Assembly: GCA_965231035.1 (NCBI GenBank)
Contig: OZ246409.1
Coordinates: forward strand, 257,222-321,221
Direction of reading: 5' to 3'
Origin: an uncultured Muribaculaceae bacterium
GTDB lineage: Bacteria > Pseudomonadota > Alphaproteobacteria > Rs-D84
DNA length: 64,000 nucleotides
Part shown: piece by piece, positions 3,200 to 56,349 of the stretch
Layout of the letters: each line of letters starts with the position of its first letter
How positions within the stretch are numbered: the stretch's first letter is position 1
Notes under the pieces: generated by a model
What the model was told of the DNA's origin: nothing
Databases searched by the model: none
Seen by the model: only the letters and a program-made list of their open reading frames with translations
Made by a program: the position numbers and the translations under genes

Positions 3200-3210
3200 A
3201 TATTTTTTCT

Positions 3211-39307: not shown

Positions 39308-39355
39308 TTATAATCCTTTTGGAGTATCCTAGCAAAACACAAAGGAGAAAATCAA

Positions 39356-40033: not shown

Positions 40034-40053
40034 AAATAAAATTGGTGTAAATT

Positions 40054-40572
40054 ATGGAAGAAAAAGAAATACTAGAAAACCAAACGAACGAAGAAAACGT
40101 TCAAACAGAATCGGAAAAAAATTCCGAAGTTGAATCCTTGCTTACCCAGATTGCTGGACTGAATGATAAATATCTTCGTCTGGCCGCAGAGCTGGAAAAT
40201 ACCCGCCGTCGTGCTGCGCTGGATGCTGAATCGACTGCCCGCAATCGTGCCTTGGCAATAATGCAAAGCTTTTTACCAGTTATGGATGCGGTTGACGCCG
40301 CTGTATCGCACGAGCCAAATGATGCCGGAATTATTTCTATTTCTAAAACACTGGTATCAGCATTGGCAAAAATCGGAATTACAAAAATTGAAACTGTTGG
40401 GCAAGTGCTGAATCCGCAATTTCATAATGTTTTACAGGTTGTTGAAAAACAATTATCTGATTGCCCATGTTCTGCCAAGCCAATTCCAAATGAAATTGTT
40501 GGAGAATTGCAGTCCGGGTATATGTTCGGTGATACTGTTTTACGTCCAGCATCGGTTGTTGTGCAAAAATAA
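40054..40572 (+). CDS. grpE: Nucleotide exchange factor GrpE
   Basis: LNDKYLRLAAELENTRRRA and the C-terminal beta-domain. Confidence 0.8.
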   Translation: MEEKEILENQTNEENVQTESEKNSEVESLLTQIAGLNDKYLRLAAELENTRRRAALDAESTARNRALAIMQSFLPVMDAVDAAVSHEPNDAGIISISKTLVSALAKIGITKIETVGQVLNPQFHNVLQVVEKQLSDCPCSAKPIPNEIVGELQSGYMFGDTVLRPASVVVQK

Positions 40573-40580
40573 TCATTTTA

Positions 40581-40612
40581 TTAATTGACAAGTTACATAT
40601 TTGTATTAATGT
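40581..40612 (+). promoter_or_regulatory. Copy B of the conserved 30-bp promoter/operator motif (-10 TAATGT)
   Basis: ttaattgacaagttacatatttgtattaatgt. Confidence 0.5.
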
Positions 40613-40613
40613 T

Positions 40614-40973
40614 GTGCTTGTAAAAACGAGCAAAGATTTGCCATACGAAAAAAATGAAATTATTGAAAAAATAGATGAAAACGGTGTAATAACATACAAC
40701 ATATACGATTGTAATTTACTGAAGAAAACCGTTTCTAAAATAAAAAATCCAAAAGAAGCCGAAAAAAAGTTTTTTGGGATCCAATATAATTATTCTATTG
40801 ATAATACGCCAAAAATTATAGAAATGACCTTTGAAGTCGCCGAAAGGAATTGGTTTTATTATCAATTGGAAAACCATGTAAAAAATGAAATAGTAAAGAA
40901 AAATAATAAAAATTCCTCAAAAAACACCGTTAAAAACTATTTTGCGAGCATACTACAAAAAATAAGAAATTGA
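40614..40973 (+). CDS. Small hypothetical protein. The true start is uncertain: the GTG at 40614 abuts the -10 box, and a downstream TTG/ATG is likely
   Basis: 119-aa track ORF; no recognised motifs. Confidence 0.3.
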   Translation: MLVKTSKDLPYEKNEIIEKIDENGVITYNIYDCNLLKKTVSKIKNPKEAEKKFFGIQYNYSIDNTPKIIEMTFEVAERNWFYYQLENHVKNEIVKKNNKNSSKNTVKNYFASILQKIRN

Positions 40974-40978
40974 AATTA

Positions 40979-41010
40979 TTAATTGACAAATTATATGTTT
41001 GTATTAATAT
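40979..41010 (+). promoter_or_regulatory. Copy C of the conserved 30-bp promoter/operator motif (-10 TAATAT)
   Basis: ttaattgacaaattatatgtttgtattaatat. Confidence 0.5.
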
Positions 41011-41031
41011 ACAATGCATAAGGTTTTTAAA

Positions 41032-41373
41032 ATGACAGAATTAAAAAAAGAAAATTATCAAAAAGACGGATTGTATAAATTGCTTGAAAAAAATTCCGAA
41101 ACTTTTGAGTTGTATAATTATGATTTCCTTGCAATGGTTATTAAAAGAAATTCTAACGGATCTTTCCACGGAATACAGAACAGCAGAACATGTGGATTAA
41201 TTCCAATGTTACCCAAAGATGCTGAAAAGCGTTGGTATGAATGTGAAAAAGAACTTCAAAATACAAAAAATAATGTTAAAATTATCAACATTTCAAAAAA
41301 AGAGACTGTTGGTAGATTTCAGAATATTTTAAATTCTGTTTTAAATCTTCTAAAACCATGTAATGCAAAATAA
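41032..41373 (+). CDS. Small hypothetical protein (start at the second ATG, preceded by an AAGG RBS)
   Basis: MTELKKENYQKDG...; no recognised motifs. Confidence 0.35.
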   Translation: MTELKKENYQKDGLYKLLEKNSETFELYNYDFLAMVIKRNSNGSFHGIQNSRTCGLIPMLPKDAEKRWYECEKELQNTKNNVKIINISKKETVGRFQNILNSVLNLLKPCNAK

Positions 41374-41408
41374 AAAATCTCGACAATGCCGAGATTTTTT
41401 ATTTTTTT
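41374..41408. terminator. Bidirectional intrinsic terminator
   Basis: aaaaaATCTCGacaatgcCGAGATtttttatttttt. Confidence 0.5.
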
Positions 41409-44400
41409 ATATTCCCAACTTATGTGTCAGTTTTAACATAAATATGGATTCATTTCCAAATTCACTGATATTGTTTGGATTGATGCGATAAATCATCCCC
41501 AGCGCACCATCTGTAAATGCCCCCAGCTTTACACGATAGCTTCCTGTGAATCTTAATTCTCGCTTTTCTGGTGACAGACCCAAATCAGAAATATGGGTAT
41601 CCCTTACAACCAGATCATATGTTCCATCTGAATTTTCAACAACATCATAATCTGCATAAGCATATTTCATATCACCCGAAGTAATTGCCAAAGGCATTGC
41701 GGCCGAGAATGAAAAATTATTTACATCTGCCCCAACTGAGAATGAATTTGATTTAATATCCGACAATCCCAATATGAAATCACCATTTGGATTTGCACGT
41801 GTTTGTGCAAAAGTCGAACGAACTGAAAAATCAATATCCTTGGTCGGGCTGTATCTTGCAACAGTATCAACATATGTTGTATCACCCTGACCCAGTCCTA
41901 ACAATCCGCCCGTTTGTGCACCCAATACTGTATTTGTTTCATGTGCAGTTCCGATTGCTGATGTAATTGCAAACTTTCCATTACCCCATGTAACGTTTGT
42001 TTCACCACCCTGGATTAATCCCAGGTTTGCTGGCTGGTACTGACTGGTAACAGTTGGGTCATTTTGCAAAATAGATTCATCTGTAATATTTCCCGAAAAC
42101 GTACGTGCACCAAAAGACCAATTTCCTGATTTGTACTCGGCACCAGTTGAAACTATATTCGAAGCCAAAGATAAAACAGGATTCGCAGTACCGTCAAATC
42201 TGGAAACACCATCAGTAAAGTGACGCTGATAACCGGCGCTGAAATTAAAGTTACCGACACCATATCCAAATTGTAAATTATCCAAACCACCCATATTATC
42301 AACATAAGCTTTTTCGGATACAGCCATTTGGAATGTTACATTACCCGATTTGAATTGTTTTGGATTTTCTTTGGTTGTTTGGAAACTTCCCAATACATCA
42401 CCCATATAAAGCCCACGAACATCAGATGTACCCAGCGCAAATTCATTTTCCCAAACACGTGGCAATGACAACGTTCCATCAGAACTTGTCAGAACATCAT
42501 AAAATGGTGCACTTATTGATGCGGCACGTGGATTAAACACTGCAGATGATCTGAACAAAGTATTTGTTGCCGCACGCCAATAACCATTTCCACTTGTTGA
42601 TACTATTGAATCCCCATCATAGTAATAAACATTAGCTGTTGGTTTTGTTGCACGTTCAATATTAACCAATCCGTAACCAAACACTTCTTTGAAAACTTTC
42701 AAATAGTCTTCGCCACCTGAGTCAACACGATACTGGTATTCTGTTGGCAATTGATACATAGCCTGCAAATAAGTTTTCAATGCCGAAACTGTCATAGCAG
42801 TCCCGGTTGTAGTTGTTGCCAAATAAGGACCATCAGCAGTCAAAGCCAACAAAGCAAACAATTGTTTGTTATTCAAATAATCAAATGCGGATTTCACAGC
42901 ACCAACCGCCCCAGCCATACTGGATACAGCCAATTCGTCTGTCAATCCTGCCGCAGAAAAACACCATGGATCAATTCCATTTGCACCACTGCCCGCAATC
43001 CCACAAGCGCGTGATTTATAGTTTTTATCATCTAATGGATCAATTGTTCCCTGGGTATCGGTCCAAGTTGATAACGCAATCTTGCCAGAAGGAACATAAC
43101 CAGAAACGCTTGTTTGACCATTTGTGCCGGTACCATTCAATCCAACTGCAACAACCGACATAAATAAATGTTCCAAATTACTGAAAACCAATGGTGCAGA
43201 ATTTTCAAATGTCGCCGTTAATGTTTGTCCTGAATATGAGCTGTCTGTTTCTGCTGCACCAGTCGAGAATATTACCAATGGTGCCCAATCGCGAAGCCCG
43301 TAGTTGTAAAAGAAATCAAAAAAGAGGCTAGCATCTGCACTTGGTAATACTGAGGTTCCATCATTCTCATAATACAAATCAACATAATCAAAAAACTTAT
43401 CCTTATAGTTAGTCGGGGTAGGAGTAACAGATAAAATATCACCAACTGTTTTTGCATCACGATCATGCAGTGGTGAAATCACAGAAGCATTTGCAATAAT
43501 ATCCACTTTTGAACGACCTGTGCTTTCTTCTGGGTCAACTAATCCCGTTAAACCAATGGCATTCAACAATGCCTTGTAATTCTTATAATCTATATTTCCC
43601 AGTTCTTTTGTCAAAGCCAAATCATTATCAGATTCAATCGTATAGGCCTTATCAACAGTACCATCGTCATCGCTGTCAATGTATAATAAACCATCCAGAC
43701 CCTTGTATCCTTTATAAGTATGTGTTCCGTCAGTTGCAGTAAATCCCAACCCAGATGAATCTTTTGCCACTGTCAAAGTATAAGAAAACAGTGTCAAAGT
43801 ATCACTGGATGACCAGCCACTGGTGCTGTTATCAGTATACACACCAGAAACTGTGCCTGCTGCGGCTTTCATACCTTTGCCACCACCAGTTCTGAAAATT
43901 GTCATCTGGCCATTTGGCATAAATCCAATATAGTCAGCAGATGAATAACCAGAATCCTTACCACCGACAACCTTGGCTAATAAATCGTCTATATCTCTTG
44001 AAAAAGAATTATTTATAACCGTTCCATATCCAGCCAAGTCGAACGAATTTAGTGCTGCTGAACTTGAATCTTCTTCGGTCGAATCGTCCAATATTGAATC
44101 AGACTCTGACCCACGATTTATTTTATTATTATAATATTTGCTGGACATCATATTATTACTTGCAGATATCACGGCATTATTATTTGTTTTGCTCCATAAT
44201 AATAATCTATCTTCAAGTGAAGTATCTTGTTTCGCATTTATACCATTCTTTGTTATTATCGCAACATTTGTTGGGCGACCACCCATAACAGAACCACCAG
44301 TCAAAGAACGACCTGAAAAACTTAGCGGTGCTTTTGATTCTGTGTTTCGCAATGTTCGCATACCCATATAACCACGTGCCAGCGCAGAATATCCATGCAT

Positions 44401-45144
44401 CATCAATAAATAATTTTGTTTATACACATGATTTGTCGTATCCGTACTGGTACCGGTCATCAATGCGAAATTATCTTTTAAAATACCTGCGGTTGATGGG
44501 CTGTAATAATTCAAATTGTTTGTGTAATTCGCGGTTTCCGATGTCGCATTAGGCATAGCGGGACTGTAAGGTAATTGAAAAGACGCAGTTCCACCACCAG
44601 GCGTAACATTTGTACAATCACATGTGCCATCTGCTTTACATATTCCAACACTGGTAATTGAACAACGACATTGTTCACCCGAAACACATTTTGTATTATC
44701 TGTGCTGGTGGTATTACTATTTCCAGCAGATACAACATCCGTTAACATAAACAGTCCGCCAACAACAACGGCGGCCCCTGCCGCCGCCAACGCTATGCTT
44801 TGGGCAGAAGACAGCCCGCTGAACAATCCACCAGATTCTTCTTTTGGTAATTTGTTTTTATATTTTTTAATCTGATAATCACACTTCGAAGCGTCTGCAC
44901 CGTACATTTGTAAAATCTGTGCGGCACGAATATCATTATTCATCAATGCTGTGCAAACAACCGACAAGCCAGTATTATCAACATAGTTTATATCCGCACC
45001 ATTATTAACCAGTGCTTGAACCTGCTGAACATCACCATTCTTTGCTGCGGCCAGCAACTGAGCTGCAACCTTGAAATTATCCACTGCAAAAGCGGAAAAT
45101 GGAACAAAAATCAAAGAAAACAACAATAATCTTATGTACTTCAT
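41407..45144 (-). CDS. Giant secreted/outer-membrane-associated protein with N-terminal ankyrin repeats and a C-terminal region of about 1000 aa that is beta-rich and rich in G, S, T, N and Y
   Basis: Signal peptide MKYIRLLLFSLIFVPFSAFA. Ankyrin repeats AAKNGDVQQVQALVNNGADINYVDNTGLSVVCTALMNNDIRAAQILQMYGADAS. A hydrophobic Gly/Ala segment is followed by a long passenger-like region and a C-terminal beta-strand-like pattern resembling an autotransporter. Confidence 0.55.
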   Translation of the reverse strand: MKYIRLLLFSLIFVPFSAFAVDNFKVAAQLLAAAKNGDVQQVQALVNNGADINYVDNTGLSVVCTALMNNDIRAAQILQMYGADASKCDYQIKKYKNKLPKEESGGLFSGLSSAQSIALAAAGAAVVVGGLFMLTDVVSAGNSNTTSTDNTKCVSGEQCRCSITSVGICKADGTCDCTNVTPGGGTASFQLPYSPAMPNATSETANYTNNLNYYSPSTAGILKDNFALMTGTSTDTTNHVYKQNYLLMMHGYSALARGYMGMRTLRNTESKAPLSFSGRSLTGGSVMGGRPTNVAIITKNGINAKQDTSLEDRLLLWSKTNNNAVISASNNMMSSKYYNNKINRGSESDSILDDSTEEDSSSAALNSFDLAGYGTVINNSFSRDIDDLLAKVVGGKDSGYSSADYIGFMPNGQMTIFRTGGGKGMKAAAGTVSGVYTDNSTSGWSSSDTLTLFSYTLTVAKDSSGLGFTATDGTHTYKGYKGLDGLLYIDSDDDGTVDKAYTIESDNDLALTKELGNIDYKNYKALLNAIGLTGLVDPEESTGRSKVDIIANASVISPLHDRDAKTVGDILSVTPTPTNYKDKFFDYVDLYYENDGTSVLPSADASLFFDFFYNYGLRDWAPLVIFSTGAAETDSSYSGQTLTATFENSAPLVFSNLEHLFMSVVAVGLNGTGTNGQTSVSGYVPSGKIALSTWTDTQGTIDPLDDKNYKSRACGIAGSGANGIDPWCFSAAGLTDELAVSSMAGAVGAVKSAFDYLNNKQLFALLALTADGPYLATTTTGTAMTVSALKTYLQAMYQLPTEYQYRVDSGGEDYLKVFKEVFGYGLVNIERATKPTANVYYYDGDSIVSTSGNGYWRAATNTLFRSSAVFNPRAASISAPFYDVLTSSDGTLSLPRVWENEFALGTSDVRGLYMGDVLGSFQTTKENPKQFKSGNVTFQMAVSEKAYVDNMGGLDNLQFGYGVGNFNFSAGYQRHFTDGVSRFDGTANPVLSLASNIVSTGAEYKSGNWSFGARTFSGNITDESILQNDPTVTSQYQPANLGLIQGGETNVTWGNGKFAITSAIGTAHETNTVLGAQTGGLLGLGQGDTTYVDTVARYSPTKDIDFSVRSTFAQTRANPNGDFILGLSDIKSNSFSVGADVNNFSFSAAMPLAITSGDMKYAYADYDVVENSDGTYDLVVRDTHISDLGLSPEKRELRFTGSYRVKLGAFTDGALGMIYRINPNNISEFGNESIFMLKLTHKLGI

Positions 45145-45209
45145 GAAAACTCTCTCTGCTAGAGAAAATTTTAACATAAAAATGTCAAATCTGTCCAGCG
45201 GAAAAAATG

Positions 45210-45482
45210 TTATCTTGTATTAAGTTTTTCAGATTGCAATTTTTTCAATATAATATCATCTGTGGTTTTATCCATATCAAAACCATCAAGCTTTTTTTCA
45301 AACTCTTGTTTTCCAAAATTTTTAATTTTATTTTTATCTTCCAACGACTTGTTAAGCAAATCTATTTTTGTTTTACTTAAATTTTCATCCAAGGCTTGCT
45401 TGACATTTAACAAAACAGATAATGCAAACAGAACCACAAAAGAATATTTACCAAAAGTTTTCAATTTCTTTTTATTATACAT
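45210..45482 (-). CDS. Small hypothetical exported protein
   Basis: 90 aa; hydrophobic N-terminus, K/E-rich. Confidence 0.3.
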   Translation of the reverse strand: MYNKKKLKTFGKYSFVVLFALSVLLNVKQALDENLSKTKIDLLNKSLEDKNKIKNFGKQEFEKKLDGFDMDKTTDDIILKKLQSEKLNTR

Positions 45483-45630
45483 AAGACTCTTCCTTTGATT
45501 ACTCTGCTATGTATAATAGACAAACACTATAACCGTCAAGCGTTTTTTCAATTTCAAGTCATTTTAAATATATTTTTGTTTTTCTCTTTTCTGGTGGGGT
45601 GTTTTTTGATACAATTAACAAACGAGAGAA

Positions 45631-46497
45631 ATGAATAAAAGTTTTGCCTTTTTCATATTTGCATTCAGCTTTGTATTTGCTGGTTTTTCTGCCGCAAGTG
45701 CTTCTTCGTGCTCGATTATGGATTTGAACAGATGTTTGGATTCAGCTTGCGGAATTAATATCAGCTTAAACCCCGGGGCACGTTGTCAGCTTTGTGGAAC
45801 TGCTCAGGCTGGTGCCGCTGATACAAAAGGATTCAAAAGTTTATCTGTTGGTGCATCAAACCGAAACACATTATCTGCATCAGATTTACAATCTGCGCCT
45901 TCTGACCCGGGATCCAGATACGCATGGGCCAGTGGCGAATGTTTAAAAAAGATTTCTGGTTGTACCGCAGATGATGTATCAAATAACTATGACAAATTAA
46001 TTGAACAATCTTGTCGTGCTGCGGGTGTTAACGCAGAAATGAATTCTTTGGTATCTGCTGCAAACAAACAAAAAAATGCAAACGTTTGTAATTCAGAAAT
46101 TCTTTTGTGTATGAATTCTGAAAAACATTGTGGCGCAGATTTTTCAAATTGCAAAACAGATGAAGATTTTAATAAACATTTTTCCGTCTGTGCATCAGAT
46201 ACAATTGGATGTGACAATTTTGTAAGTGATATGCGTACAAATATGATTTCACAGCGTGATTCTGCGACATTGGCTTATGATAATTCTGTATCCAGTATTG
46301 TTAAATCTTATCAAACAAAACGCGAAAGCGGATTGAAATCTGCAACAGATACTTGCACAAACAACAAGGGACGCGAAAGTTGCATAAAAACCGTTTGCCA
46401 GAATAATATGAAAAACAAGTGTGATAGTGATTCTGAAAAATCAATAGCGACATTGTTATGTAAATTTTACGACACAGCTTGCGGAAGGTTAAAATAA
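45631..46497 (+). CDS. Secreted cysteine-rich protein; small relative of the CGxDFxNC family. First gene of a four-gene operon
   Basis: Signal peptide; CSIMDLNRCLDSACG...; CMNSEKHCGADFSNC. Confidence 0.55.
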   Translation: MNKSFAFFIFAFSFVFAGFSAASASSCSIMDLNRCLDSACGINISLNPGARCQLCGTAQAGAADTKGFKSLSVGASNRNTLSASDLQSAPSDPGSRYAWASGECLKKISGCTADDVSNNYDKLIEQSCRAAGVNAEMNSLVSAANKQKNANVCNSEILLCMNSEKHCGADFSNCKTDEDFNKHFSVCASDTIGCDNFVSDMRTNMISQRDSATLAYDNSVSSIVKSYQTKRESGLKSATDTCTNNKGRESCIKTVCQNNMKNKCDSDSEKSIATLLCKFYDTACGRLK

Positions 46498-46500
46498 CAA

Positions 46501-48063
46501 ATGAAATTATACGGTTCAATTTTTACGACTTGTTTTTTGGCTACTGCCTTGGTGTTATCATATAACCCAGCAAACGCCGCGGTTGTTCAACGTGGATCTG
46601 TAACGGCGCGCGCTGCACCACGTGCAAATAATGCTATGCGTATTGCATCAACAACAACTACCAATGATACTGTTGAAGCAACAGATACAACAGTTGCGGA
46701 ACTCGAAACAACAGATACAGCAATTGCAGATGCAAATGTAATTGAAAACAAATCTTCTAAATTTGATTCTGTGTTGGGGGATGTTGGTTCAAATTCAATG
46801 GACGTTTCTGCAAAGTCACGCACACAAATGATAATGGATCAACGTGCTGCTTTGGATGCATCAGATACGCAATCCACCAGCAAAAAAGTTGTTACGACTG
46901 CGGGCAGCACTTGCGATACAAATTTGCGTAATTGTATGAAGCAAAAATGCAATAATGATTTTTCAAAATGTTCTGGGGACGGCGATACTGATTGGGGAAA
47001 CAAAATAAATTCTTGCCGTGCCACTTCAAATTGTTCCAGTGAAGAATTTAATTTATTCGCAGATGAAATCAAGGCAGACCGAGACTATAATTCAGAAATG
47101 GCAAATTATAATCAAACCATTGATTGCGGGAACAGATATAACAGCTGTATAATTTCGCAATGTGGTACAGATTTTTCAAAATGCCTTTCTAAATCTGTTG
47201 CAGATGCTGCGGTGTTGAATTGCACAAAAATCGCAACCGATTGTCAAAGTGCTGATAACGGTTTAACATCCAGGGCTCAAGAAGTTTTCGGTACACTTCG
47301 TAACAACGCCGTAACCCAGACAAAGAAAGATGAAGATCGCCTATATGAACTGCGCAATTTAATGACAGAACAGTGTAAAAGTTTCGGTGCTTCGTTTGAC
47401 GAACGCAGTTTGGATTGCGTATTCACAGTAAATCTGTTCGCAAATAATTCTAAAACACCAATGGCATCAAAAAAATTGTACGCCGGTGATACATTTGATT
47501 GTAACCAGGATTGGTTTGGTATTGATTTAACAACTTATAAAGAAAATGCTTATCGTTTAACACGTTCCCAGACGGCTGCATCATCCGCTATGTTGGGTGC
47601 AGGATTGGGTGTTGCCGCCGGTGCGATTTCATCGGGTGCAATCAGCCACGCAATTGATACACACAAGGCAGAAAAAGCATTAGACGCCGCAAAAGAAAAC
47701 TCGAATTCCTCAAGTAACAACGAATCAGGTTTATCATCAGTTGATGGAAGCAGCATGAATAAAACAAACACAGAAACTGAAACCTCTTCAAAAATTGATG
47801 TTGAAACAAACCGGGATCAGGTTTTAAAAGATAATGCTAAGATAACAGGAAATAACGCCGAAGCTATGGAAAATATGGATAAATCAAGACAAGATTATGA
47901 AACCGCCAAGAAAAACAATGATATGATTGGTATGGCAAATGCTGAAGCTAATATGCACGCAGAAGGAAGTAAAGTAAAAGAAATGGAACATATAGAGGTA
48001 TCTTCTACACCATCTGCACCAGAAAAAATAGATGCTTCAAAATTATTAGGTGGATCGAAATAA
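46501..48063 (+). CDS. Secreted cysteine-rich protein with a Gly-zipper hydrophobic segment; family relative
   Basis: CDTNLRNCMKQKCNNDFSKCSGDGD; CIISQCGTDFSKC; SAMLGAGLGVAAGAISSGAI. A 4-nt gap separates it from the upstream gene. Confidence 0.55.
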   Translation: MKLYGSIFTTCFLATALVLSYNPANAAVVQRGSVTARAAPRANNAMRIASTTTTNDTVEATDTTVAELETTDTAIADANVIENKSSKFDSVLGDVGSNSMDVSAKSRTQMIMDQRAALDASDTQSTSKKVVTTAGSTCDTNLRNCMKQKCNNDFSKCSGDGDTDWGNKINSCRATSNCSSEEFNLFADEIKADRDYNSEMANYNQTIDCGNRYNSCIISQCGTDFSKCLSKSVADAAVLNCTKIATDCQSADNGLTSRAQEVFGTLRNNAVTQTKKDEDRLYELRNLMTEQCKSFGASFDERSLDCVFTVNLFANNSKTPMASKKLYAGDTFDCNQDWFGIDLTTYKENAYRLTRSQTAASSAMLGAGLGVAAGAISSGAISHAIDTHKAEKALDAAKENSNSSSNNESGLSSVDGSSMNKTNTETETSSKIDVETNRDQVLKDNAKITGNNAEAMENMDKSRQDYETAKKNNDMIGMANAEANMHAEGSKVKEMEHIEVSSTPSAPEKIDASKLLGGSK

Positions 48064-48066
48064 AAA

Positions 48067-48663
48067 ATGAAAAAAGTATTAACAAGTATCTTTTCTATTC
48101 TTATATTAACGCCTGCAATCTCTACTGGTTTGTCAGACTACAAAAATTGTAAACTTAACATAGACTCAGAATATTCCAGAAAAGAACTTTCTTTAGAATC
48201 TCAACAGAAACTTGACACATGGATGAAAACGCCCCTAACAGAAGATAGAAAAGGTACATTTAATAGTATTTCATATTCTTGCCCAGCTGGGACACTTCCT
48301 AGCGACTGCTCCGGACAAGGAAAAGATATTTTAAAATCTCTATATGAAAAATATTTAAAACAAATGGAAATTGATGCTGCTGTGAAAGAAAAATGTACAA
48401 ACGACACTTCTATTCAGACAGATGTTAAAAAAACAGAAGTTGTGGAAAATTTAAAGAATACTGTTAAAGAGACCAATACTGAAAAAAATAGTAACTCAAA
48501 AGAAAGCTTCGGCAGCGGTATTAAGAATATGTTCAAATCCGACAAGAAAAAACTAGCAGAGGCAACTCAACAAGCAACAGATTCAGAAAAACAAGCATTA
48601 GAAGAATTTAACACATCTGTTCAAATTGCAAAATCTGAATTTGAAAGAAAACTTGGAATTTAA
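48067..48663 (+). CDS. Hypothetical exported protein
   Basis: Signal peptide MKKVLTSIFSILILTPAIST; K/E-rich. Confidence 0.4.
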   Translation: MKKVLTSIFSILILTPAISTGLSDYKNCKLNIDSEYSRKELSLESQQKLDTWMKTPLTEDRKGTFNSISYSCPAGTLPSDCSGQGKDILKSLYEKYLKQMEIDAAVKEKCTNDTSIQTDVKKTEVVENLKNTVKETNTEKNSNSKESFGSGIKNMFKSDKKKLAEATQQATDSEKQALEEFNTSVQIAKSEFERKLGI

Positions 48664-48675
48664 AGCGGCAATAAT

Positions 48676-50043
48676 ATGAAGAAACTACTTTTTGTATTTT
48701 TATTTTTACTTCCTGTTACTGCTTTTGCAGATGCTTTTGACGACGCTGTGGCAAAATATGAGTCTGATGTCAAAAATGCAACAAATATATTGAATAGTAA
48801 AATCACACAAAATACAAATCTTGTACAACTGTCCACAGATCAAGTAAACGATGATATGAAATCAACTGTCAGAACAGCTAAAAAGAAATTTAACAAACAG
48901 TTAAGTTCCCAAGAAAAAGAAGATGAACAAAAATATCAAGAAAAACAACAAGAAGTAAGTGAACAAACAGATGTTTCAAATTCCGCAAATTCATCAAATG
49001 TTACAAATCCTGATAAAATTGCCGAGCTTGAAGCCAATGCCAAGGCAATGAAAGATAAAGAAAACTCAACTGCAAATAAAATGCTGGGGGCGGCAGCCGT
49101 TGGCGCAACCGGAATTGGCGGCAGCCAATTGTTGCAAGGTCTGTCCGAAAAAAAATCAGACGATGCAGCCGAACGTGATATGAAAGCTTATCTGGCAACA
49201 TTTAAATGTGACTATGGTCAGGGACAAAATGTTAACGGTGGCGATAAATCAATCACCCTGCCCGGCGGAAATGTTTTAACATCTTATTACACAGAATATA
49301 AAACTCTGGCAGCTAATCTTAAAACTACGAAAACTGCTTTGGGATTAACACCTGGAATTGAATCTGAAACATTATTGGATAAATCAACCGCAGGGCTTTA
49401 TGACAATGAATCAACTGGCAAAAAATCTGGTGCTTTTGCCAGCGTATCTGATGCCTTGTCTGGGAATGCAGATGCTAAAGACGCTTGGAATGCCCAAAAA
49501 TCCGAAGCATCTAAAAAGGTCACAACTGGTATTGTTGCCGCCGGCGTTGGTATTGTTGGTGGCGCAGTTGGAAATATGTTGATAAATAAAGATTCCACCA
49601 AGGAAAGTTCAGATGTAAATTCTGATGATAAAAAAACAAATGATACAAGTTCTTCTGTGACTTCTTCTGATAAAAGCAATGAACAAAAAATATCTTCTGT
49701 TACAAATGATAATGTTTCTTTGGATAACACAGATAAAAAAACTAATACTTTTGAAGATTTAGACAAAAAATATAAAGACGCAGCAATCAAATTCAAAGAA
49801 GCAGACGAATTATATAATAAATTAGCTAATGAAAGTATGAAAAACGGTGGTGTTGTTACTGAAGAATTAGAAGATGCAAGAATTGCGCGCGACCAAGCAG
49901 AGAAAGACCTTGAAACTGCAAAAAGTGAAACTGTTACAGCCAATTCATCTATGAAAGAAATTCAAACTGGAAATAATACCTCTGATGATATCTCGAAACT
50001 ATCTAATAATTCTTCTACTTTGTCATTGCGAGGAATGAAATGA
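48676..50043 (+). CDS. Hypothetical exported protein with Gly-zipper segments; the last 9 codons and the stop are supplied by a repeat element
   Basis: Signal peptide; MLGAAAVGATGIGG and GIVAAGVGIVGGAVGNML. The C-terminus STLSLRGMK* is encoded by ttgtcattgcgaggaatgaaatga. Confidence 0.5.
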   Translation: MKKLLFVFLFLLPVTAFADAFDDAVAKYESDVKNATNILNSKITQNTNLVQLSTDQVNDDMKSTVRTAKKKFNKQLSSQEKEDEQKYQEKQQEVSEQTDVSNSANSSNVTNPDKIAELEANAKAMKDKENSTANKMLGAAAVGATGIGGSQLLQGLSEKKSDDAAERDMKAYLATFKCDYGQGQNVNGGDKSITLPGGNVLTSYYTEYKTLAANLKTTKTALGLTPGIESETLLDKSTAGLYDNESTGKKSGAFASVSDALSGNADAKDAWNAQKSEASKKVTTGIVAAGVGIVGGAVGNMLINKDSTKESSDVNSDDKKTNDTSSSVTSSDKSNEQKISSVTNDNVSLDNTDKKTNTFEDLDKKYKDAAIKFKEADELYNKLANESMKNGGVVTEELEDARIARDQAEKDLETAKSETVTANSSMKEIQTGNNTSDDISKLSNNSSTLSLRGMK

Positions 50044-50202
50044 TGTATTAACTGGATTGCCACGCTTCGCTCGCAATGACAAATTGTTGGGGTTAGTTAT
50101 AGTTCCAGTTTGTCATTGCGAGGAATAAAATGACGAAGCAATCCAGGTTGATAAAAGAAAAACATATTGACTGGATTGCCGTGCTTCGCTCGCAATGACA
50201 AA
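50019..50202. repeat. Cluster A of RPE-like hairpin repeats: two elements built from inverted units TTGTCATTGCGAGG...GACGAAGCAATCCAG and CTGGATTGCCrCGCTTCGCTCGCAATGACAA
   Basis: Units at about 50019-50033 plus 50052-50083, and 50109-50147 plus 50171-50202. Confidence 0.75.
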
Positions 50203-50208
50203 TCTAAA

Positions 50209-50237
50209 TTAAAAACCGCCCATTTGGGCGGTTTTTA
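50209..50237. terminator. Intrinsic terminator
   Basis: aaaaaCCGCCCAtttGGGCGGttttt. Confidence 0.45.
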
Positions 50238-50251
50238 ACTTTTATACCTTA

Positions 50252-52300
50252 TTATTGGCATGCGCCATAAGATACTGCAACTGGATGATTATCTACGCAA
50301 GTGCTGCCAGAAACAACACATGCTGTATTTACCAATTGTGTATTGGTTGAATTAACCGGTTTATAATTCAGCTGTGCTGCTGCGCACTGGTTCAAATCTT
50401 TCAGTGTTGCACAAGCATTCTTCCACGAAGTACAATCTGTCGCAGTTGCTGTTGGCATAATTGTATCTGGCAAACGCAGGTTCCATTTGACATAGAAGTC
50501 TTTTAACGAACCAATGCTATAAGATTTACCAAAGTCAACCTTTTGCAATCCGTCACCAACACGACAGTTAATGTTGTTCTTTTCAACAAAAGATGTGATT
50601 GCTGTTGCCAATCCACCTGCGGCGGCACCAGCACCGGCACCAATTGCAGTTGACGCCAACATGTTTGAATCCTCACCCTGCAATATTGTCAACTGATTCA
50701 TAACATTTCCCAGTTCTTTTACTTGTTTTCCAAATTCTTCACTATCAACGCAATTATTGTTATTCCCCGAACAATATGGTTTTATACCATTCTTTTTTGC
50801 AAGATTCAAGTTACTGAATGTCATGGCACATTTATCTGTCGATGTTATAACAGTATTATCATTAGAAAGTTTTTTTACCGTTATTTTAATACTTCTGGTT
50901 CCATCATCAGTCAGGTATTTTACCTTATCTTCTGTCAAACTATTATTCATTACTTCACGATCTTTATTATCCTTTGAAACTTTGTCAAGCATTGCTTTAC
51001 TAGTAGTTCCATCGAAAAGTATATCTTTTGCTGTTACATCTATATCTTCGGTATTAGTAATATTTATTGCTGAATTTGTTGTACCAGTTGTGCATGATTT
51101 CAATGCAACTTTTGCTGCTTGGTAATCACTGTAAAGTGTAACTATGGCTTCGCACTGATCGCCAATATATTCATTTACAATAATCTGGCTTTCAGAATCC
51201 AAGAATTGATTTAAAACAGCGACCTTGCCAGTTGCACGCAATTCCTTATCCAATTCTTTTACCTGATCTTTGTCTTTGCAGTTAAAGTTACGTTGACCAT
51301 GGCCGGCCAATGCACCGATACCTGCACCAACCAATGTACCACCACCAACACCAACGACTGATGTGGTCTTGGTCTTGGTCATCAAACCAAACCCAAACAT
51401 ATCTTTACCACAGTTAAAGCTGCTGCCTGCTGATTTCCAAACTTCGGCCGGTTGATCATTTCCAGCGGCACCAAATAACCAACTGTTTTTGATTTGTGAA
51501 TCTTTGTTGTACGCTGCAACACGAACCAAACATTCACCCTTGACCGCATCCCATCTGGCATAATGTCCACGTTGTGCATCAACAGTACCATTATTATTAA
51601 CCCTTACACCCTGAGGCATATCTTTGGTCAAAGATCCACCAGACTGACTGTTATAAGCACCAACAGTTTGGTTATATTCTTCTGTGACTTTTCCACCATT
51701 CGAAATCGCTGCAAAAGATGAACCATAAGTATTTTTATCCAACAACCAACATGTATTTTCTGCTTGGTTTGGTGTTAATCCTGTTTTGCGCAGAACAAAA
51801 GAATAATATTCAGGTTGAATCTTGCGAGAGTTATAGTCCCACCAAAAATCAGAAGAAGTAGCATAAACATTTTTGCAATTCTTACGAACGTCGCTGATAC
51901 ATTTATCCACCTGGGCATAACACAGACTCATTCCATTAAAGATAGAATTACGCAAATCTTCGTTGAACAAATCGTTTAACCCACCAGGAAGTGCACCGTT
52001 GTTAATACAAGAAGTAACATCGTTGATGCAATTTTCAACTGTATATTCAGAATTTGCAACACCACCATCTGGACACTTGGAAACTGTTGTTCCTGTATTC
52101 GTTGTAGTATTACCAGTCGCATTGCCAGGAAGAATTGACATTGTTGGCATACGTTGCTGACCTGCTGTATAGGCTGCCCCACGAACCGGTGCAACATTAT
52201 AACCCGCACGCCCTGTATCCGCTGCACCTGCAGAACCTAGAACAAAAACTGTACTTGCAGACACAATGGAAAACCCGAATTTCTTTAATAAATTGTGCAT
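50252..52300 (-). CDS. Large exported protein with Cys pairs and two Gly/Ala-zipper segments
   Basis: Signal peptide MHNLLKKFGFSIVSASTVFVLGSAGA; VGVGGGTLVGAGIGALAGHG; AIGAGAGAAAGGLATAITS. Confidence 0.45.
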   Translation of the reverse strand: MHNLLKKFGFSIVSASTVFVLGSAGAADTGRAGYNVAPVRGAAYTAGQQRMPTMSILPGNATGNTTTNTGTTVSKCPDGGVANSEYTVENCINDVTSCINNGALPGGLNDLFNEDLRNSIFNGMSLCYAQVDKCISDVRKNCKNVYATSSDFWWDYNSRKIQPEYYSFVLRKTGLTPNQAENTCWLLDKNTYGSSFAAISNGGKVTEEYNQTVGAYNSQSGGSLTKDMPQGVRVNNNGTVDAQRGHYARWDAVKGECLVRVAAYNKDSQIKNSWLFGAAGNDQPAEVWKSAGSSFNCGKDMFGFGLMTKTKTTSVVGVGGGTLVGAGIGALAGHGQRNFNCKDKDQVKELDKELRATGKVAVLNQFLDSESQIIVNEYIGDQCEAIVTLYSDYQAAKVALKSCTTGTTNSAINITNTEDIDVTAKDILFDGTTSKAMLDKVSKDNKDREVMNNSLTEDKVKYLTDDGTRSIKITVKKLSNDNTVITSTDKCAMTFSNLNLAKKNGIKPYCSGNNNNCVDSEEFGKQVKELGNVMNQLTILQGEDSNMLASTAIGAGAGAAAGGLATAITSFVEKNNINCRVGDGLQKVDFGKSYSIGSLKDFYVKWNLRLPDTIMPTATATDCTSWKNACATLKDLNQCAAAQLNYKPVNSTNTQLVNTACVVSGSTCVDNHPVAVSYGACQ

Positions 52301-52421
52301 TATTTCTCCCTTTAATTGTTTTAATTATAGCACCAAATACACTATAAAAAAAGTATTTTCTGTATAAAAAACAAATTAATATTCTGCGGTTTTAATATTT
52401 TTTACGTTTTAGTAGTAATAT

Positions 52422-52450
52422 TTGACAAATAAACAAAATTCGTCTATTAT
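52422..52450 (+). promoter_or_regulatory. Sigma-70-type promoter TTGACA-N17-TATTAT with the ATG only about 7 nt downstream; possibly leaderless
   Basis: The start of the track ORF coincides with the TTGACA box. Confidence 0.35.
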
Positions 52451-52457
52451 TAAATTG

Positions 52458-53384
52458 ATGAAAAAGCTGTCTGAGTTTTTAAAGACAAATGTGCTGGCAG
52501 TAAAGTGGACCTTTTGGTATTTTGCTGCGTTTTATGCTGTCCTGTCCTTTTTATTTGGATTTAATATATTTTCTGCAAATGATTGGATTATGATTACTCA
52601 TTCCAGATTGCGCGGACTACCTGGTTTTACTTTTGGAATTATTATGTTTTCAGCAATTCCTTTGTACATTGCGACTACTGCAACAATTATAAAAACGAAA
52701 AAACCTTTATTTAATTTCTTTACTGCAAAAAAAGAAGAACCTAAAAAAATAGCCGAAGAAAAAAAAGAAGTTTTCAAAGAAATTATTATTCAATTTCCAG
52801 AAAGAATGCCGACTGAATTACGTGGTGCGTTTATTCGTGCAAGACAACAAGCTGGTGTCAGACCAGAATCTGCCTTTGATATGAAAGACATAAAATCACA
52901 ACCAAAAGTGGCAATCGAAGAAAAAAAAGAAGAAACACCAGAATTTGGTTTACCATTGCCTGATAATTTTGATTTTACATCTGAAAACGAATCGCCTGCC
53001 GAATTACAGTTCAGTTCAACACCTGTGTTCAAAGAAATTAATTTTGGAGATTTTAATACAAAGAAAGATAGCAAATCACCATTGATTGAACATCTTGAAA
53101 GCAAAGGATATGAAATTGCTTTTGATGGTAATGTTGTAATCGCAAATAATTTTGCAATTGCGGTTCACGACGATTCGGATTTTTGGATTGCTGATAAAGA
53201 CAATTGGTTTGCAGCAGGCAAACAAAAAGAATCCCCCATATCCGAAGTTTTAATGGTATCTGAAAAACACGGTGTAAATGCGATGATTTATTTGGCGGAA
53301 AAAAATATTATGGATTTGGACAAACGAATTGCAGAATGGGAATTCAAAGGAGTCAAGGTTATTAAAAACCTGACTGAAATTTAA
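52458..53384 (+). CDS. Hypothetical membrane protein (3 N-terminal TM helices plus a cytoplasmic or periplasmic domain)
   Basis: MKKLSEFLKTNVLAVKWTFWYFAAFYAVLSFLFGF...; K/E-rich linker; C-terminal globular part. Confidence 0.4.
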   Translation: MKKLSEFLKTNVLAVKWTFWYFAAFYAVLSFLFGFNIFSANDWIMITHSRLRGLPGFTFGIIMFSAIPLYIATTATIIKTKKPLFNFFTAKKEEPKKIAEEKKEVFKEIIIQFPERMPTELRGAFIRARQQAGVRPESAFDMKDIKSQPKVAIEEKKEETPEFGLPLPDNFDFTSENESPAELQFSSTPVFKEINFGDFNTKKDSKSPLIEHLESKGYEIAFDGNVVIANNFAIAVHDDSDFWIADKDNWFAAGKQKESPISEVLMVSEKHGVNAMIYLAEKNIMDLDKRIAEWEFKGVKVIKNLTEI

Positions 53385-53398
53385 TTAGCTAATAAAAC

Positions 53399-53538
53399 TT
53401 GTCATTGCGAGGAGTGCAACGACGAAGCAATCCAGTGGATAAAAATGCAAAAGCATACTTACTGGATTGCCACGCTTCACTCGCAATGACAATCTGGTCT
53501 TATTTACTGGATTGCCGCGCTTCGCTCGCAATGACAAA
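53399..53538. repeat. Cluster B of RPE-like hairpin repeats (one full element plus one solo unit)
   Basis: 53399-53436 and 53462-53492 form a hairpin; a solo unit lies at 53507-53538. The units are the same as in cluster A. Confidence 0.75.
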
Positions 53539-53542
53539 GAAA

Positions 53543-53571
53543 TAAAAAATCCGCCAAGGCGGATTTTTTAT
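53543..53571. terminator. Bidirectional intrinsic terminator
   Basis: aaaaaATCCGCCaaGGCGGATtttttt. Confidence 0.5.
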
Positions 53572-56349
53572 TTACATCTGTACACCATTTGTAACTGTTG
53601 TTGGATCTTTGAATTTAGTACAAAAAACACCTTCAAATTTTTTCGTCACTCTTTTTCTTCCACCACCTATATGCAATATACCACCTCCACCTTTGCATCC
53701 ACCACCACCAAAAAAACTTAACCCACCATAACTACAAGTATTAGATTTTGAATAAACATCTTTAAATGTATCACACATAGTCGTAACTGTAGTTATATTG
53801 CAAGTATTAGATGAAGATGAATATACAGAAGTTAAAGAAACCTTTCCAATCATATTACCCTTAGTATCCGTTTGAGTCCATTCAGAATGACCACTGGATG
53901 CTACAGAAATTATATCCGACATCTTTGCACCACTTATAATATATTTCATTGAGTAAATATCATTACCAGACACACCTTTACTTGATGTATCATCAAACAA
54001 ATCAGCATAAGATGTAGCTTCATATGCTGTGCAATTCCCGTCAGAATCATAAGTTTTACAAGATTTAGGTTCTGATGCCATAGCTGCACACATTGCTGTT
54101 TTTAAATCATCATTTTGATTTTCTAATGCTTCTGATACCATTTTATCATACTTTTTATTATAGTTTTTATTTGCTTTTTCCAAGCCAGAATTCATTATAG
54201 CCAATATAGAAGAATCTAATAAATTTGGATATCTTGCCGTAGATGTTGTTGATACTGCATTTGTTCCATCACCACGAATTTGTGTCATATCACGACCCTC
54301 AATACACATCTTTATTTTTGCATCCTGAGACAAGACAGCTATCTTTTGATTCATCTTATTTGCCGTGGATTGTAAAGATGAAACAACGCGTGAGGTCAAA
54401 GAATCTGAAGATAATAAATGATTTTTGTAATCATTTATATCAATCTCGTACTTACCAAATTTTACATCTGTATCACTACTTTTTGTCCTTTCAATTTTCA
54501 CATTTCCATAAGAAACTAATCCTTCAATTACATAATCTCCATTATTATCCTTGTAACTGGATAAACTTTCTGTACCAATAGAATCATCATCATCGAATGC
54601 TGTGCAATTATCAGTATCACCACATATTTCTATCATTTTTTCAGACACAATTTTTTGACATTTATCCAGCAGCGAATTATCTATATTAAGGTAAATTCCT
54701 TGTACTATATTATCTATATCATTAATATTATTTAAAACGCCATCTTTTTGACATCCTACCAGTTTATCAATTGGACATAGTTTCTTTATATCACTCAAAT
54801 CTAAACCTATACAATTATGAAAATCTTCGCCGCAAGTATTTTCATTAGTGAAACATTCTTTAACTTCGGTTGTACAAGAATCAACACGCATTGCTGATAA
54901 TTTTGCATAGACATAATCCAGAATCAAAGGTTCTGCTGAAACACAAGGATCGATTTGCACTTTGCATAAAGAACGAACTGTTTCTGGACGTGATAAACAC
55001 ATATCATATGAACCATCCGGATCATTTGGATCAATTGTATCTTTACATGCTTTTTGGAAACATGAGGATATATTAGAAATACAATTTGTCCGTAAATTAG
55101 ATTCAGCCAATAGTTCAGCTGTTTTTAAAGTTGGTGCAACATCACGCAAAAATGAATTCCAAACCTGGTCTTTTACTGCAACACAAGAATTTGTTATATT
55201 TTCACACATTGGTTTTTTTGATTCCAGCGCATCCATAGTGGATGCAGCAACTGAAATTTTTGTATTTGATCCGGTTATATCAACCATCTTCATAGAAGAC
55301 TTAGAACTGCTGGACATCTTGGCATTTTCAGCCGCAGCAATTCCAACACAGCCTGTAAAATCACTTTTGCAACCTGCTGTATCAGTCATGCATTTTTCAA
55401 AAGCCAAAGTACACTGACCTAGGTCATATTTATTTGCTGTACGTAATGAATCCAAAGCGGCATCACGCAGAGCCTTTTGTGCAGTTGCTAATTTCTGTGT
55501 GCTGGAATTTTTTTGCTTAGTTAAATCATTTTCATACGCCGCACAATCAGATTTTATATTCTGAGAATAACCAAGTTGTATCATTGCCAAATCTTCTGAA
55601 CATTCTGGAATTTGTGCTGAACACAATTCAGCAACAGAACTATACAAGTCATTACCTGTTTTACCTTCAACAGGGCTTACCTCTCTTTGTGCAAATATAT
55701 CTTGATCCATTGTATCAGAATCCGTCTGATTCCACTGACTTAAATCCAACGTTTTTTTCTGGGTTACATTACTAGTTGTTAAACTATTTGCTGTATTGTT
55801 TGCAGATGCGATTACTTTATCTGCATCAGAACCCATTTCAATTTTTTCAACACCCTCGGTTGCCATTTTATAACTTTGAGCATCCAAAGCCTGAATCTGA
55901 ACCTGAACCTTATCCAGCTCAGCCTTGCGATCACTGCATAAACAACGACCGCCACTGGTGTTTTCAATCATACAAAAAGAATCCATACATCCATAATATT
56001 TTTGCTTACAAGCTTCATCCACTATTATATTCTTGTTCACACCAGAAATTGCAGTACCTGAATTTATAACTTTTTGCATAGTCCCAGCACGTGCAGAAAC
56101 AACTGGCGCGGACATTGGAGTTGCCGCAGATCTGGCAGATATTGTTCGAACGTTTGAAGATGTTGCACTGGGCATTACAGCTGAACGTGCAGAAGTTGGT
56201 CTGACAGCAGCACGTGCCGACACGGGTGTTTGTGCAGTGCTTTCAGATGGTTGTGATACAGATTGACCACGCCTTTGCACAGGAACTTCAGCATTTGCAC
56301 ACACAACAAAGGTTGCCATAAAAATAGAAAAAATTGCAATTTTTCTCAT
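53572..56349 (-). CDS. Large secreted cysteine-rich protein, family member 5 (close paralog of 20963-23464)
   Basis: Signal peptide MRKIAIFSIFMATFVVCANA; SARSAVMPSATSSNVRTISARSAATP; CKQKYYGCMDSFCMIENTSGGRCLCSDR; CGEDFHNCIGLDLSDIKKLCPIDKLVGC; Gly-rich C-terminus. Confidence 0.7.
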   Translation of the reverse strand: MRKIAIFSIFMATFVVCANAEVPVQRRGQSVSQPSESTAQTPVSARAAVRPTSARSAVMPSATSSNVRTISARSAATPMSAPVVSARAGTMQKVINSGTAISGVNKNIIVDEACKQKYYGCMDSFCMIENTSGGRCLCSDRKAELDKVQVQIQALDAQSYKMATEGVEKIEMGSDADKVIASANNTANSLTTSNVTQKKTLDLSQWNQTDSDTMDQDIFAQREVSPVEGKTGNDLYSSVAELCSAQIPECSEDLAMIQLGYSQNIKSDCAAYENDLTKQKNSSTQKLATAQKALRDAALDSLRTANKYDLGQCTLAFEKCMTDTAGCKSDFTGCVGIAAAENAKMSSSSKSSMKMVDITGSNTKISVAASTMDALESKKPMCENITNSCVAVKDQVWNSFLRDVAPTLKTAELLAESNLRTNCISNISSCFQKACKDTIDPNDPDGSYDMCLSRPETVRSLCKVQIDPCVSAEPLILDYVYAKLSAMRVDSCTTEVKECFTNENTCGEDFHNCIGLDLSDIKKLCPIDKLVGCQKDGVLNNINDIDNIVQGIYLNIDNSLLDKCQKIVSEKMIEICGDTDNCTAFDDDDSIGTESLSSYKDNNGDYVIEGLVSYGNVKIERTKSSDTDVKFGKYEIDINDYKNHLLSSDSLTSRVVSSLQSTANKMNQKIAVLSQDAKIKMCIEGRDMTQIRGDGTNAVSTTSTARYPNLLDSSILAIMNSGLEKANKNYNKKYDKMVSEALENQNDDLKTAMCAAMASEPKSCKTYDSDGNCTAYEATSYADLFDDTSSKGVSGNDIYSMKYIISGAKMSDIISVASSGHSEWTQTDTKGNMIGKVSLTSVYSSSSNTCNITTVTTMCDTFKDVYSKSNTCSYGGLSFFGGGGCKGGGGILHIGGGRKRVTKKFEGVFCTKFKDPTTVTNGVQM

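Follow-up and report, generated by a model that had tools for sequence, protein, structure and literature searches.

The 64,000-nucleotide stretch of contig OZ246409.1 analyzed here, which we call the window, carries on its plus strand, at positions 48676–50043, a gene for a secreted protein of 455 amino acids (aa) with the signal peptide MKKLLFVFLFLLPVTAFA. The gene ends inside a hairpin repeat, whose 65-nucleotide (nt) copy at this site, designated S, occupies 50019–50083. We consider it likely that S is a decayed unit of the Ssn/SRM system, which couples a site-specific single-stranded DNA (ssDNA) nuclease with a hairpin motif (Chenal et al., Nat Commun 2025; PMC11893778), and that the unit has lost its nuclease gene, leaving a hairpin remnant to end the host gene.

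A gene that ends inside a hairpin repeat

The 455-aa product of the open reading frame (ORF) 48676–50043 ends in ...SNNSSTLSLRGMK. Its last seven sense codons and stop, TTG TCA TTG CGA GGA ATG AAA TGA, occupy 50020–50043 and lie inside the 5' arm of S, the first T of which (50019) is the third base of the ACT codon preceding the repeat-encoded codons. The two arms of S, TTTGTCATTGCGAG at 50019–50032 and CTCGCAATGACAAA at 50070–50083, are complementary at 14 of 14 positions and lie 37 nt apart, and as ssDNA the 65 nt fold at −14.9 kcal/mol (z = −4.8), a value that none of 200 shuffles equaled. These observations confirm what a first-pass annotation of this DNA had claimed, namely that codons 50020–50043 form the first arm of a hairpin with its partner at 50070–50083; its further statement that the repeat provides the C-terminal residues and the stop codon holds for the window allele.

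The protein is deposited as NCBI HNY24932.1, a hypothetical protein of a metagenome-assembled genome (MAG) named Alphaproteobacteria bacterium, and exactly the same 455-aa product is found on 11 independently assembled contigs. Three of these contigs were checked and are base-for-base identical to window 48676–50260. Because an identical allele recurs on independent contigs, the read-in into S is real and assembly error is excluded.

S comprises a truncated left half-unit on the plus strand at 50019–50043 (GTC-ATTGC-GAGGAATGAAATGA), which encodes LSLRGMK and the TGA stop, and an intact half-unit on the minus strand at 50053–50080 (GTCATTGCGAGCGAAGCGTGGCAATCCA). The intact motif has the strand form GTCATTGCGAG...GCAATCCAG. 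The TGA sits in the lineage-specific variable insert of the motif, outside its conserved core, and another copy of the family, F2, is open in the same frame, so termination inside S is contingent. We have no evidence of a function for the read-in, which is probably a passive by-product.

The window holds four copies of the family in two intergenic clusters. Besides S these are F1, a full ORF-less doublet of 94 nt at 50109–50202 (half-units 50112–50145 on the plus and 50172–50199 on the minus strand; ssDNA fold −23.1 kcal/mol, z = −6.1); F2, a full ORF-less doublet of 96 nt at 53398–53493 (half-units 53401–53434 on the plus and 53463–53490 on the minus strand; −26 kcal/mol, z = −7.0); and a solo half-copy at 53505–53538 (half-unit 53508–53535, minus strand). 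The first-pass annotation had listed none of these three. Only S touches an ORF. The six half-units, two on the plus strand and four on the minus, take the form GTC-ATTGC...GCAAT-C-CA(G). Such sequences are far more frequent than expected: the window has 8 matches to TTGTCATTGCGAGG at up to two mismatches, where 0.55 would be expected and none of 100 shuffles gets to 8, and 6 oriented half-units whose stem positions are complementary, where 0.66 would be expected and the most in any of 200 shuffles is 4. A loose half-unit pattern lacking the stem requirement gave 9 occurrences against 8.1 expected, which is not significant, and the version requiring complementarity was used in its place.

S and F1 are separated by a 25-nt spacer (50084–50108) that carries a TAG at 50093–50095. 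The right arm of S and the left arm of F1 (50070–50122) form a 17-nt inverted repeat of their own, 94% complementary and 19 nt apart, making the tandem foldable in two ways; the RNA fold pairs the left of S with the right of F1 and the right of S with the left of F1. The 15 nt upstream of S (50004–50018) and of F1 (50094–50108) are identical at 9 of 15 positions (TAATAATTCTTCTAC and TAGTTATAGTTCCAG), a likeness that could be the trace of a tandem duplication including flank or chance in AT-rich DNA.

The same insertion with a nuclease gene

The last 142 residues of the host protein (314–455) form a lineage-specific tail rich in Ser, Asn, Asp, and Lys. Searching with this tail only returned a single protein, P0121, at 99% identity, encoded on a contig (L013) whose DNA is 90–98% identical to window 37911–53384. 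A second, independent, and ungapped assembly of this sister allele is available (L099). The two alleles have both junctions of the element in common, ...TTCTAC|TTTGTCATTGCGAGGAATGAAATGA on the left and CTCGCAATGACAA|TTGTT on the right. In the sister allele the left junction is followed by CGAAGCAATCCAG, a 12-nt spacer, a 102-aa ORF, a 9-nt spacer, and ACTGGATTGCCACGCCTGCGGCTCGCAATGACAA, after which the same right flank resumes. The complete sister unit of 401 nt (L099 1603–2003) is thus an arm, a nuclease gene, and an inverted arm, the 102-aa ORF (L013 10732–11040; L099 1653–1961) containing a GIY-YIG domain (PF01541, E = 5e-10).

S is collinear with both ends of this unit and has lost what lies between, the nuclease gene and the left arm's 3' half included, which identifies S as a deletion derivative of a nuclease-bearing unit. 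Its junctions, TAC|TTTG...CAAA|TTG, show terminal inverted repeats and no direct repeat. Since MAFFT dealt poorly with the large indel that separates the alleles, we took the junctions from the sequences themselves and confirmed them on the ungapped assembly. The other copies differ as well: F1 survives in the sister allele as a 15-nt remnant only (GCTCTCCATGACAAA), and the second repeat cluster, including F2, is absent. The nuclease gene, F1, and the second cluster are therefore each present in one allele and deleted, reduced to a remnant, or absent in the other, which amounts to turnover between strains.

Relation to Ssn/SRM and to other palindromic repeats

In Neisseria meningitidis, SsnA is a 94-aa, single-domain GIY-YIG protein (CDD cd10448) whose gene is flanked by copies of a hairpin sequence, NTS; it binds NTS (CGTCATTCCCGCGMAVGCGGGAATCYRG) solely as ssDNA and cuts a few nt upstream, the GTC before the palindrome being required for cutting and the C after it for binding (PMC11893778). 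Among Ssn homologs, the hairpin motif, named SRM for Ssn-related motif, was found nearby in 71% and on both sides in 42%, and the authors remarked that NTS-ssnA-NTS resembles an insertion sequence (IS) and drew a parallel with REP/RAYT (PMC11893778). We found no follow-up papers to this description. Literature searches combining GIY-YIG with "palindromic element," MITE (miniature inverted-repeat transposable element), REP/REPIN/RAYT, or COG2827/UPF0213/YhbQ yielded nothing relevant, the Ssn paper came from a search of titles for GIY-YIG, and a literature search with the arm sequence gave primer coincidences only.

The nuclease of the sister allele has hundreds of homologs of ≈95–100 aa. On N. 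gonorrhoeae chromosomes it matches one site, a 94-aa ORF that is 46% identical over 89 residues (E = 1e-27) and flanked by canonical NTS hairpins, and some metagenomic homologs are likewise flanked by sequences matching the canonical NTS consensus. A single-sequence search of the PDB with the nuclease gave no match. The gonococcal hits (L094) come from 2.17-Mb N. gonorrhoeae records filed as plasmids (NZ_CP119140.1 and NZ_CP119142.1) that are evidently chromosomes, a database labeling error.

The metagenomic loci examined encode homologs 46–60% identical to the sister-allele nuclease. Of 75 loci, 41 and 35, respectively, have exact copies of the 9-mers CATTGCGAG and CTCGCAATG in the 250 nt upstream and downstream of the homolog, where we put the chance rate at about 0.001 for each such flank. 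The order of the parts does not vary: GTCATTGCGAG, insert, CGAAGCAATC, spacer, ORF, GATTGCTTCG, insert, CTCGCAATGAC. With an orientation-aware pattern, which superseded a first, strict "window-type" regular expression that under-counted, at least one oriented half-unit is present in 61 of 71 loci, and a bracket with the plus form upstream and the minus form downstream occurs in 32 loci versus 8 with the opposite arrangement; the chance rate of the loose pattern, derived from window shuffles, is ≈0.02 per 300-nt flank and strand. Stem positions 4 and 5 co-vary (GC/GC 144, CC/GG 11, CT/AG 5), with 160 of 175 pairs complementary. Full units are often adjoined by ORF-less doublets.

The nuclease genes sit tight against their arms: at 7 of 42 loci the stop codon adjoins or overlaps the half-unit downstream at its inner end. 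Public gene calls (P0126, P0131, P0137, and P0151; loci L014–L093) often run into the arms and so acquire spurious N- or C-terminal extensions, translating the arms literally (MSLRGSKATAAIQ... at the start; ...NWIATTSSEVSQ or ...GLPRTSCSQ before the stop) and giving arm-derived extensions such as MSLRG...AIQ and ...WIATTSSEVSQ. In six loci (L036, L043, L066, L072, L082, and L093) the variable insert of many half-units is itself a small hairpin, for example TAGGGGC-AAA-GCCCCTA or ACCAGT-AAAAACC-ACTGGT, and a full unit with such inserts could fold as a multi-branched junction.

Several features tie the window repeats to Ssn/SRM. The sister allele has a single-domain GIY-YIG gene of the ≈94–102-aa class between its own hairpin repeats; the motif consists of GTC, a palindrome starting ATT and ending AAT, then C and YRG; the copies are oriented, numerous, intergenic, and clustered beside membrane or surface-protein genes; and the layout is the IS-like one on which the authors of the system remarked. 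The repeats differ from the published form in their core, ATTGC...GCAAT around a variable insert of 10–50 nt versus ATTCCCGCG...CGCGGGAAT, in their ORF-less inverted doublets, one of which is a direct deletion derivative of a nuclease-bearing unit, and in that one copy is translated. We infer that they constitute a distinct core class of Ssn/SRM, GTC-ATTGC-[variable insert]-GCAAT-C-YRG, which the nuclease would recognize. The system itself was described in 2025, and the window locus is a clear example of it, not a new phenomenon.

On this reading, the module would be an Ssn gene of ≈100 codons, encoding a single-domain GIY-YIG nuclease specific for sites in ssDNA, between two inverted copies of the SRM hairpin, with a motif that retains the positions of experimental importance in Neisseria, the GTC upstream for cutting and the C after the palindrome for binding. 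The unit lies at the very 3' end of a gene for a surface protein, immediately before the terminator. The window strain has lost the nuclease gene and one half of the left motif by internal deletion, so that a 65-nt hairpin remains, and host translation enters the surviving 25 nt of the left motif, reading seven codons (LSLRGMK) before a TGA in the variable insert. The spread and turnover of the repeats would depend on the Ssn nuclease acting on ssDNA hairpins.

A number of observations weigh against this account. The 64 kb of the window contain no ssn gene. The published degenerate SRM pattern, HGTCWYN(0-2)YYVSBRHN(0-5)WNVSBRGN(0-2)RNCYNB, matches none of the window half-units and does match the canonical NTS control; it was built by hand from 29 genomes as a search aid (PMC11893778), and we treat it as a search tool and not as a definition. 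Single half-units are predicted to form the ATTGC/GCAAT stem in the right register and fold at only −3.3 to −5.5 kcal/mol (z = −0.2 to −1.3), compared with −8.9 kcal/mol (z = −4.3) for the canonical NTS; folds of the inverted doublets have −15 to −26 kcal/mol. Neither a target-site duplication nor a clean empty site was found, the flanks of the second cluster being too diverged in the sister allele, and we infer mobility of the units from presence or absence and from deletion derivatives only. Finally, a single-base frame difference that separates the two alleles upstream of S cannot be polarized, the tail search having found no outgroup and the locus being a recombination mosaic.

The position of the repeats raises the question of an RNA role. 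Both clusters lie between convergent genes and immediately upstream of intrinsic terminator-like hairpins, at 50209–50238 and at 53540–53573. The first, on the plus strand, has 13 bp and a T-run and is common to its convergent genes; the second directly follows the solo half-unit. The hairpins might accordingly be 3'-end RNA elements kept by the host, REP-like stabilizers of mRNA or aids to termination, with the overlap of the stop codon as part of their role, and 50005–50250 does fold as RNA at −89 kcal/mol (z = −8.6). We consider this improbable. The hairpins have no T-runs of their own, the real terminators coming after them, and the clusters are dispensable, since the sister strain has no second cluster and next to nothing of F1. 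Moreover, the conserved positions are those that the nuclease requires, and the family member that has been studied acts on DNA, not RNA (PMC11893778). Rfam at gathering thresholds found only a tRNA in the window and, at E ≤ 1, only noise in eight nuclease loci, so that the arms are not a known RNA family.

As decayed Ssn/SRM units, the repeats also invite comparison with other mobile hairpins. Like REP/REPIN-RAYT and IS200/IS605, they are short hairpin units of intergenic 3' regions, where they form inverted doublets and clusters, with a single-copy gene for a hairpin-specific, ssDNA-acting enzyme that is itself flanked by units; the enzyme here is a GIY-YIG nuclease and not a Y1 HUH transposase. 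We know of no strand-transfer chemistry for the GIY-YIG nuclease of the unit. With bacterial MITEs (Correia/NEMIS, ERIC) they have in common small size, terminal inverted repeats, stable hairpins, and origin by internal deletion from an ORF-bearing parent, whereas no target-site duplication is detectable here and the parent encodes a nuclease in place of a transposase. MITEs occasionally make translational fusions with host ORFs (PMC10969869). A group I intron, a ribozyme, and IS200/IS605-type ends were considered and dropped, there being no conserved core beyond the two arms.

The first-pass annotation had likened the repeat to a Rickettsia palindromic element (RPE) and pointed to in-frame insertion into ORFs as the defining behavior of such elements. 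RPEs are 100–150-bp repeats of Rickettsia that lie in ORFs without destroying the frame (PMC10969869; PMC3767692), and a genuine one would have entered coding sequence here and added a peptide segment. The likeness is real only in the signature. Every half-unit in the window begins GTCAT, which is ATGAC on the other strand, and ATGAC is reported as a signature of RPE-4, -6, and -7 and of Wolbachia palindromic elements and as depleted in RPE-1, -2, and -3 (PMC3767692). The window repeats, RPE-4, -6, and -7, and the Wolbachia elements are all alphaproteobacterial palindromic repeats able to land in coding sequence with a common ATGAC/GTCAT signature. Rickettsia and Wolbachia are listed among the most SRM-rich genomes, without mention of RPEs (PMC11893778); the host is alphaproteobacterial, with relatives labeled Rickettsiales in some records; and some frames of the full copies are open.

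Neither the in-frame insertion nor the RPE identity is borne out, however. RPEs add an internal peptide with the frame kept, whereas the window ORF terminates within S and does not resume, only the spacer, the second copy, and the terminator following. Compared with NCBIfam and Pfam at E ≤ 10, six open-frame translations hit no RPE model (whether RPE models are still in these libraries is unverified), and blastn of the 102-nt element region found no match in 72,556 plasmid records, where Rickettsia plasmids are expected but unchecked. The copies measure 65, 94, and 96 nt, as opposed to 100–150 bp, and the host is a non-Rickettsia MAG. The overlap of repeat copies with ORFs, which had been proposed as a check for the whole genome, was followed within the window, where one of the four copies, S, touches an ORF and the other three are intergenic. 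The cognate GIY-YIG gene, too, is no part of the RPE definition. We judge a genuine RPE very unlikely. Rickettsia repeats may contain the same arm sequence as the window copies, which we take as a lead only.

The 3' end of the host gene and its setting

Just upstream of the element, at 49969–49976 on the plus strand, the window reads CTG-GAAATAA and the sister allele CTGAAAAATAA, a net difference of a single base at 49969–49970. The TAA at 49974–49976 is out of frame in the window and an in-frame stop in the sister allele, whose ORF ends 43 nt before the element and 22 codons earlier than the window ORF. Seventeen codons at 49969–50019 (plus strand; GNNTSDDISKLSNNSST) are translated in the window allele only, and 13 of the 17 encode Ser, Asn, Asp, or Thr. 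In the tail of the protein itself, 8% of in-frame windows reach this level, which is rare in stop-free stretches from all six frames of the window (P = 0.0005) and was found in 0 of 869 out-of-frame windows of the host gene and 0 of 5537 shuffles of the same bases. The tail-like composition suggests that the window ORF probably ran up to the insertion site. When S (50019–50083) is excised from the window, a stop (the TAG at 50093–50095) follows three codons later, giving ...SSTCWG; the equivalent excision in the sister allele (L099, read by hand) puts the stop six codons on, ...STCFDYCI. The displaced stretch was thus no longer than a few codons. Substitution rates as a test of coding in the 45 nt before the element were abandoned, since the alleles are mosaic and divergence rises upstream of the TAA.

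From these comparisons we lean toward an original ORF that extended, in the window frame, across the insertion site, with three to six native terminal codons exchanged for seven, and we incline to the same degree toward the earlier TAA of the sister allele being a derived +1 frameshift. The alternative is that the element struck the 3' untranslated region (UTR) of an ancestral ORF ending at the TAA and that the window lineage later lost one base, so that translation now crosses 14 former UTR codons into the repeat, which merely offers the next available stop, nothing having been replaced. This sequence of events is credible, if on balance not the one we favor. It accords with the sister allele, where two independent assemblies show the same insertion and an ORF ending 43 nt upstream, with the other three window copies being intergenic, one beginning 14 nt past a stop codon, and with the report that only 2% of NTS in N. 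meningitidis lie inside genes (PMC11893778). It has to accommodate the composition of the seventeen codons, which would be very unusual for non-coding or out-of-frame DNA, and the facts that the window allele is the commoner (11 contigs versus 2) and that rearrangement has in other respects gone further in the sister allele, whose upstream gene is chimeric.

The first-pass annotation had stated that the repeat replaced the native 3' end of the gene. This stands to the extent that, if the ORF did run through the insertion site, a few terminal codons were probably swapped; it cannot be extended to the C-terminal domain of the family. Homologs of the 455-aa protein are numerous, and residues ≈110–313 are conserved with "OmpA family" homologs. 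Past this common region the homologs carry differing C-terminal modules, mostly a Cys-rich linker with an OmpA domain, and across the family the module may be OmpA, CarboxypepD_reg, trypsin, or none. The nearest relatives of the window are MAGs labeled Alphaproteobacteria, Rickettsiales, or Ca. Enterousia, and the closest genome locus (L001), from a Zodletone alphaproteobacterial MAG, is gene-for-gene syntenic with the window. Its positional ortholog is a repeat-free protein of 574 aa with a Cys-rich linker and an OmpA domain. Orthologs lacking the repeat had been expected to show the same C terminus if the claim was wrong; the C-terminal 260 residues of this one are completely different, and the only other allele with the tail itself carries the element and ends earlier. 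The 3' parts of the two genes (L001 10930–11713 and window 49615–50018) are non-homologous, homology stopping at 49614 (residue 313). The Cys-rich/OmpA region of the ortholog has left no trace anywhere in the window in any frame, and a frameshifted OmpA domain was rejected on that ground. With the breakpoint of the OmpA-bearing homology 400 nt upstream of the repeat, loss of the OmpA domain has no demonstrable link to the insertion.

The surroundings are themselves rearranged between the alleles. Within the host gene, 688 nt (49232–49919) are identical in both, while the flanks differ by ≈12% downstream and ≈20% at 49036–49231 and the neighboring genes are 90–94% identical; the block looks like a recent recombination tract and ends ≈100 nt before the repeat. 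Further upstream, a segment of 316 nt of unrelated, coiled-coil-like coding sequence in the sister allele (L099 303–618) takes the place of window 47679–49035, a stretch holding the 3' part of a 520-aa gene, all of a 198-aa gene, and ≈120 codons from the start of the host gene. The resulting chimeric ORF is open to the contig edge (519 residues called). The difference amounts to a large structural polymorphism within a tandem array of genes for secreted proteins.

That array, at 45631–53384, comprises six ORFs for secreted, often Cys-rich proteins without a Pfam family (288, 520, 198, 455, 682, and 320 aa) and is preceded by a 1256-aa ankyrin-repeat protein on the minus strand (41407–45177). 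The gene convergent with the host gene, at 50252–52300 on the minus strand, encodes the 682-aa Cys-rich secreted protein. F2 begins 14 nt past the stop codon of the next gene, 52422–53384, and the two genes are bracketed by the two repeat clusters. The arrangement of clusters around the 682-aa and 320-aa genes resembles the "SRM-genes-SRM" layout discussed for Neisseria. Elsewhere in the window, a 1036-aa ORF at 3152–6262 (GTG start at 3152) overlaps a tRNA-Leu(GAG) gene (3115–3199), and its true start is presumably further downstream.

For the gene at 48676–50043 the effect of the repeat is small. It yields a surface protein with a seven-residue, repeat-encoded tail that is evidently dispensable, because the sister strain truncates it. 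For Ssn/SRM, whose mobility was only hypothesized in the 2025 description (PMC11893778), the locus offers a natural before-and-after pair, 401 nt with the nuclease gene and a 65-nt deletion derivative at the same junctions. The pair captures the miniaturization and turnover of an Ssn unit, with neighboring copies present in one strain and absent in the other, and its setting, a surface-protein locus that is a recombination mosaic, parallels in an unrelated and uncultured alphaproteobacterium what is described for Neisseria. The motif class GTC-ATTGC...GCAAT-C is dominant among the relatives of the nuclease at the 71 metagenomic loci and is missed by the published pattern.

The locus also provides a concrete and testable link from the hairpins associated with Ssn to the palindromic elements of ATGAC type in Rickettsiales. 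More speculatively, the arm-ssn-arm arrangement of the ATTGC class could be an active IS-like mobile element that routinely decays into ORF-less hairpin doublets, and RPE-4, -6, and -7 and the Wolbachia elements could be the same thing. If that tentative idea proved true, the Ssn ssDNA nuclease would be the long-missing enzyme behind the spread of ATGAC-type RPEs, and the remodeling of protein termini, caught here in two alleles, would be a general by-product at hypervariable surface-protein loci.

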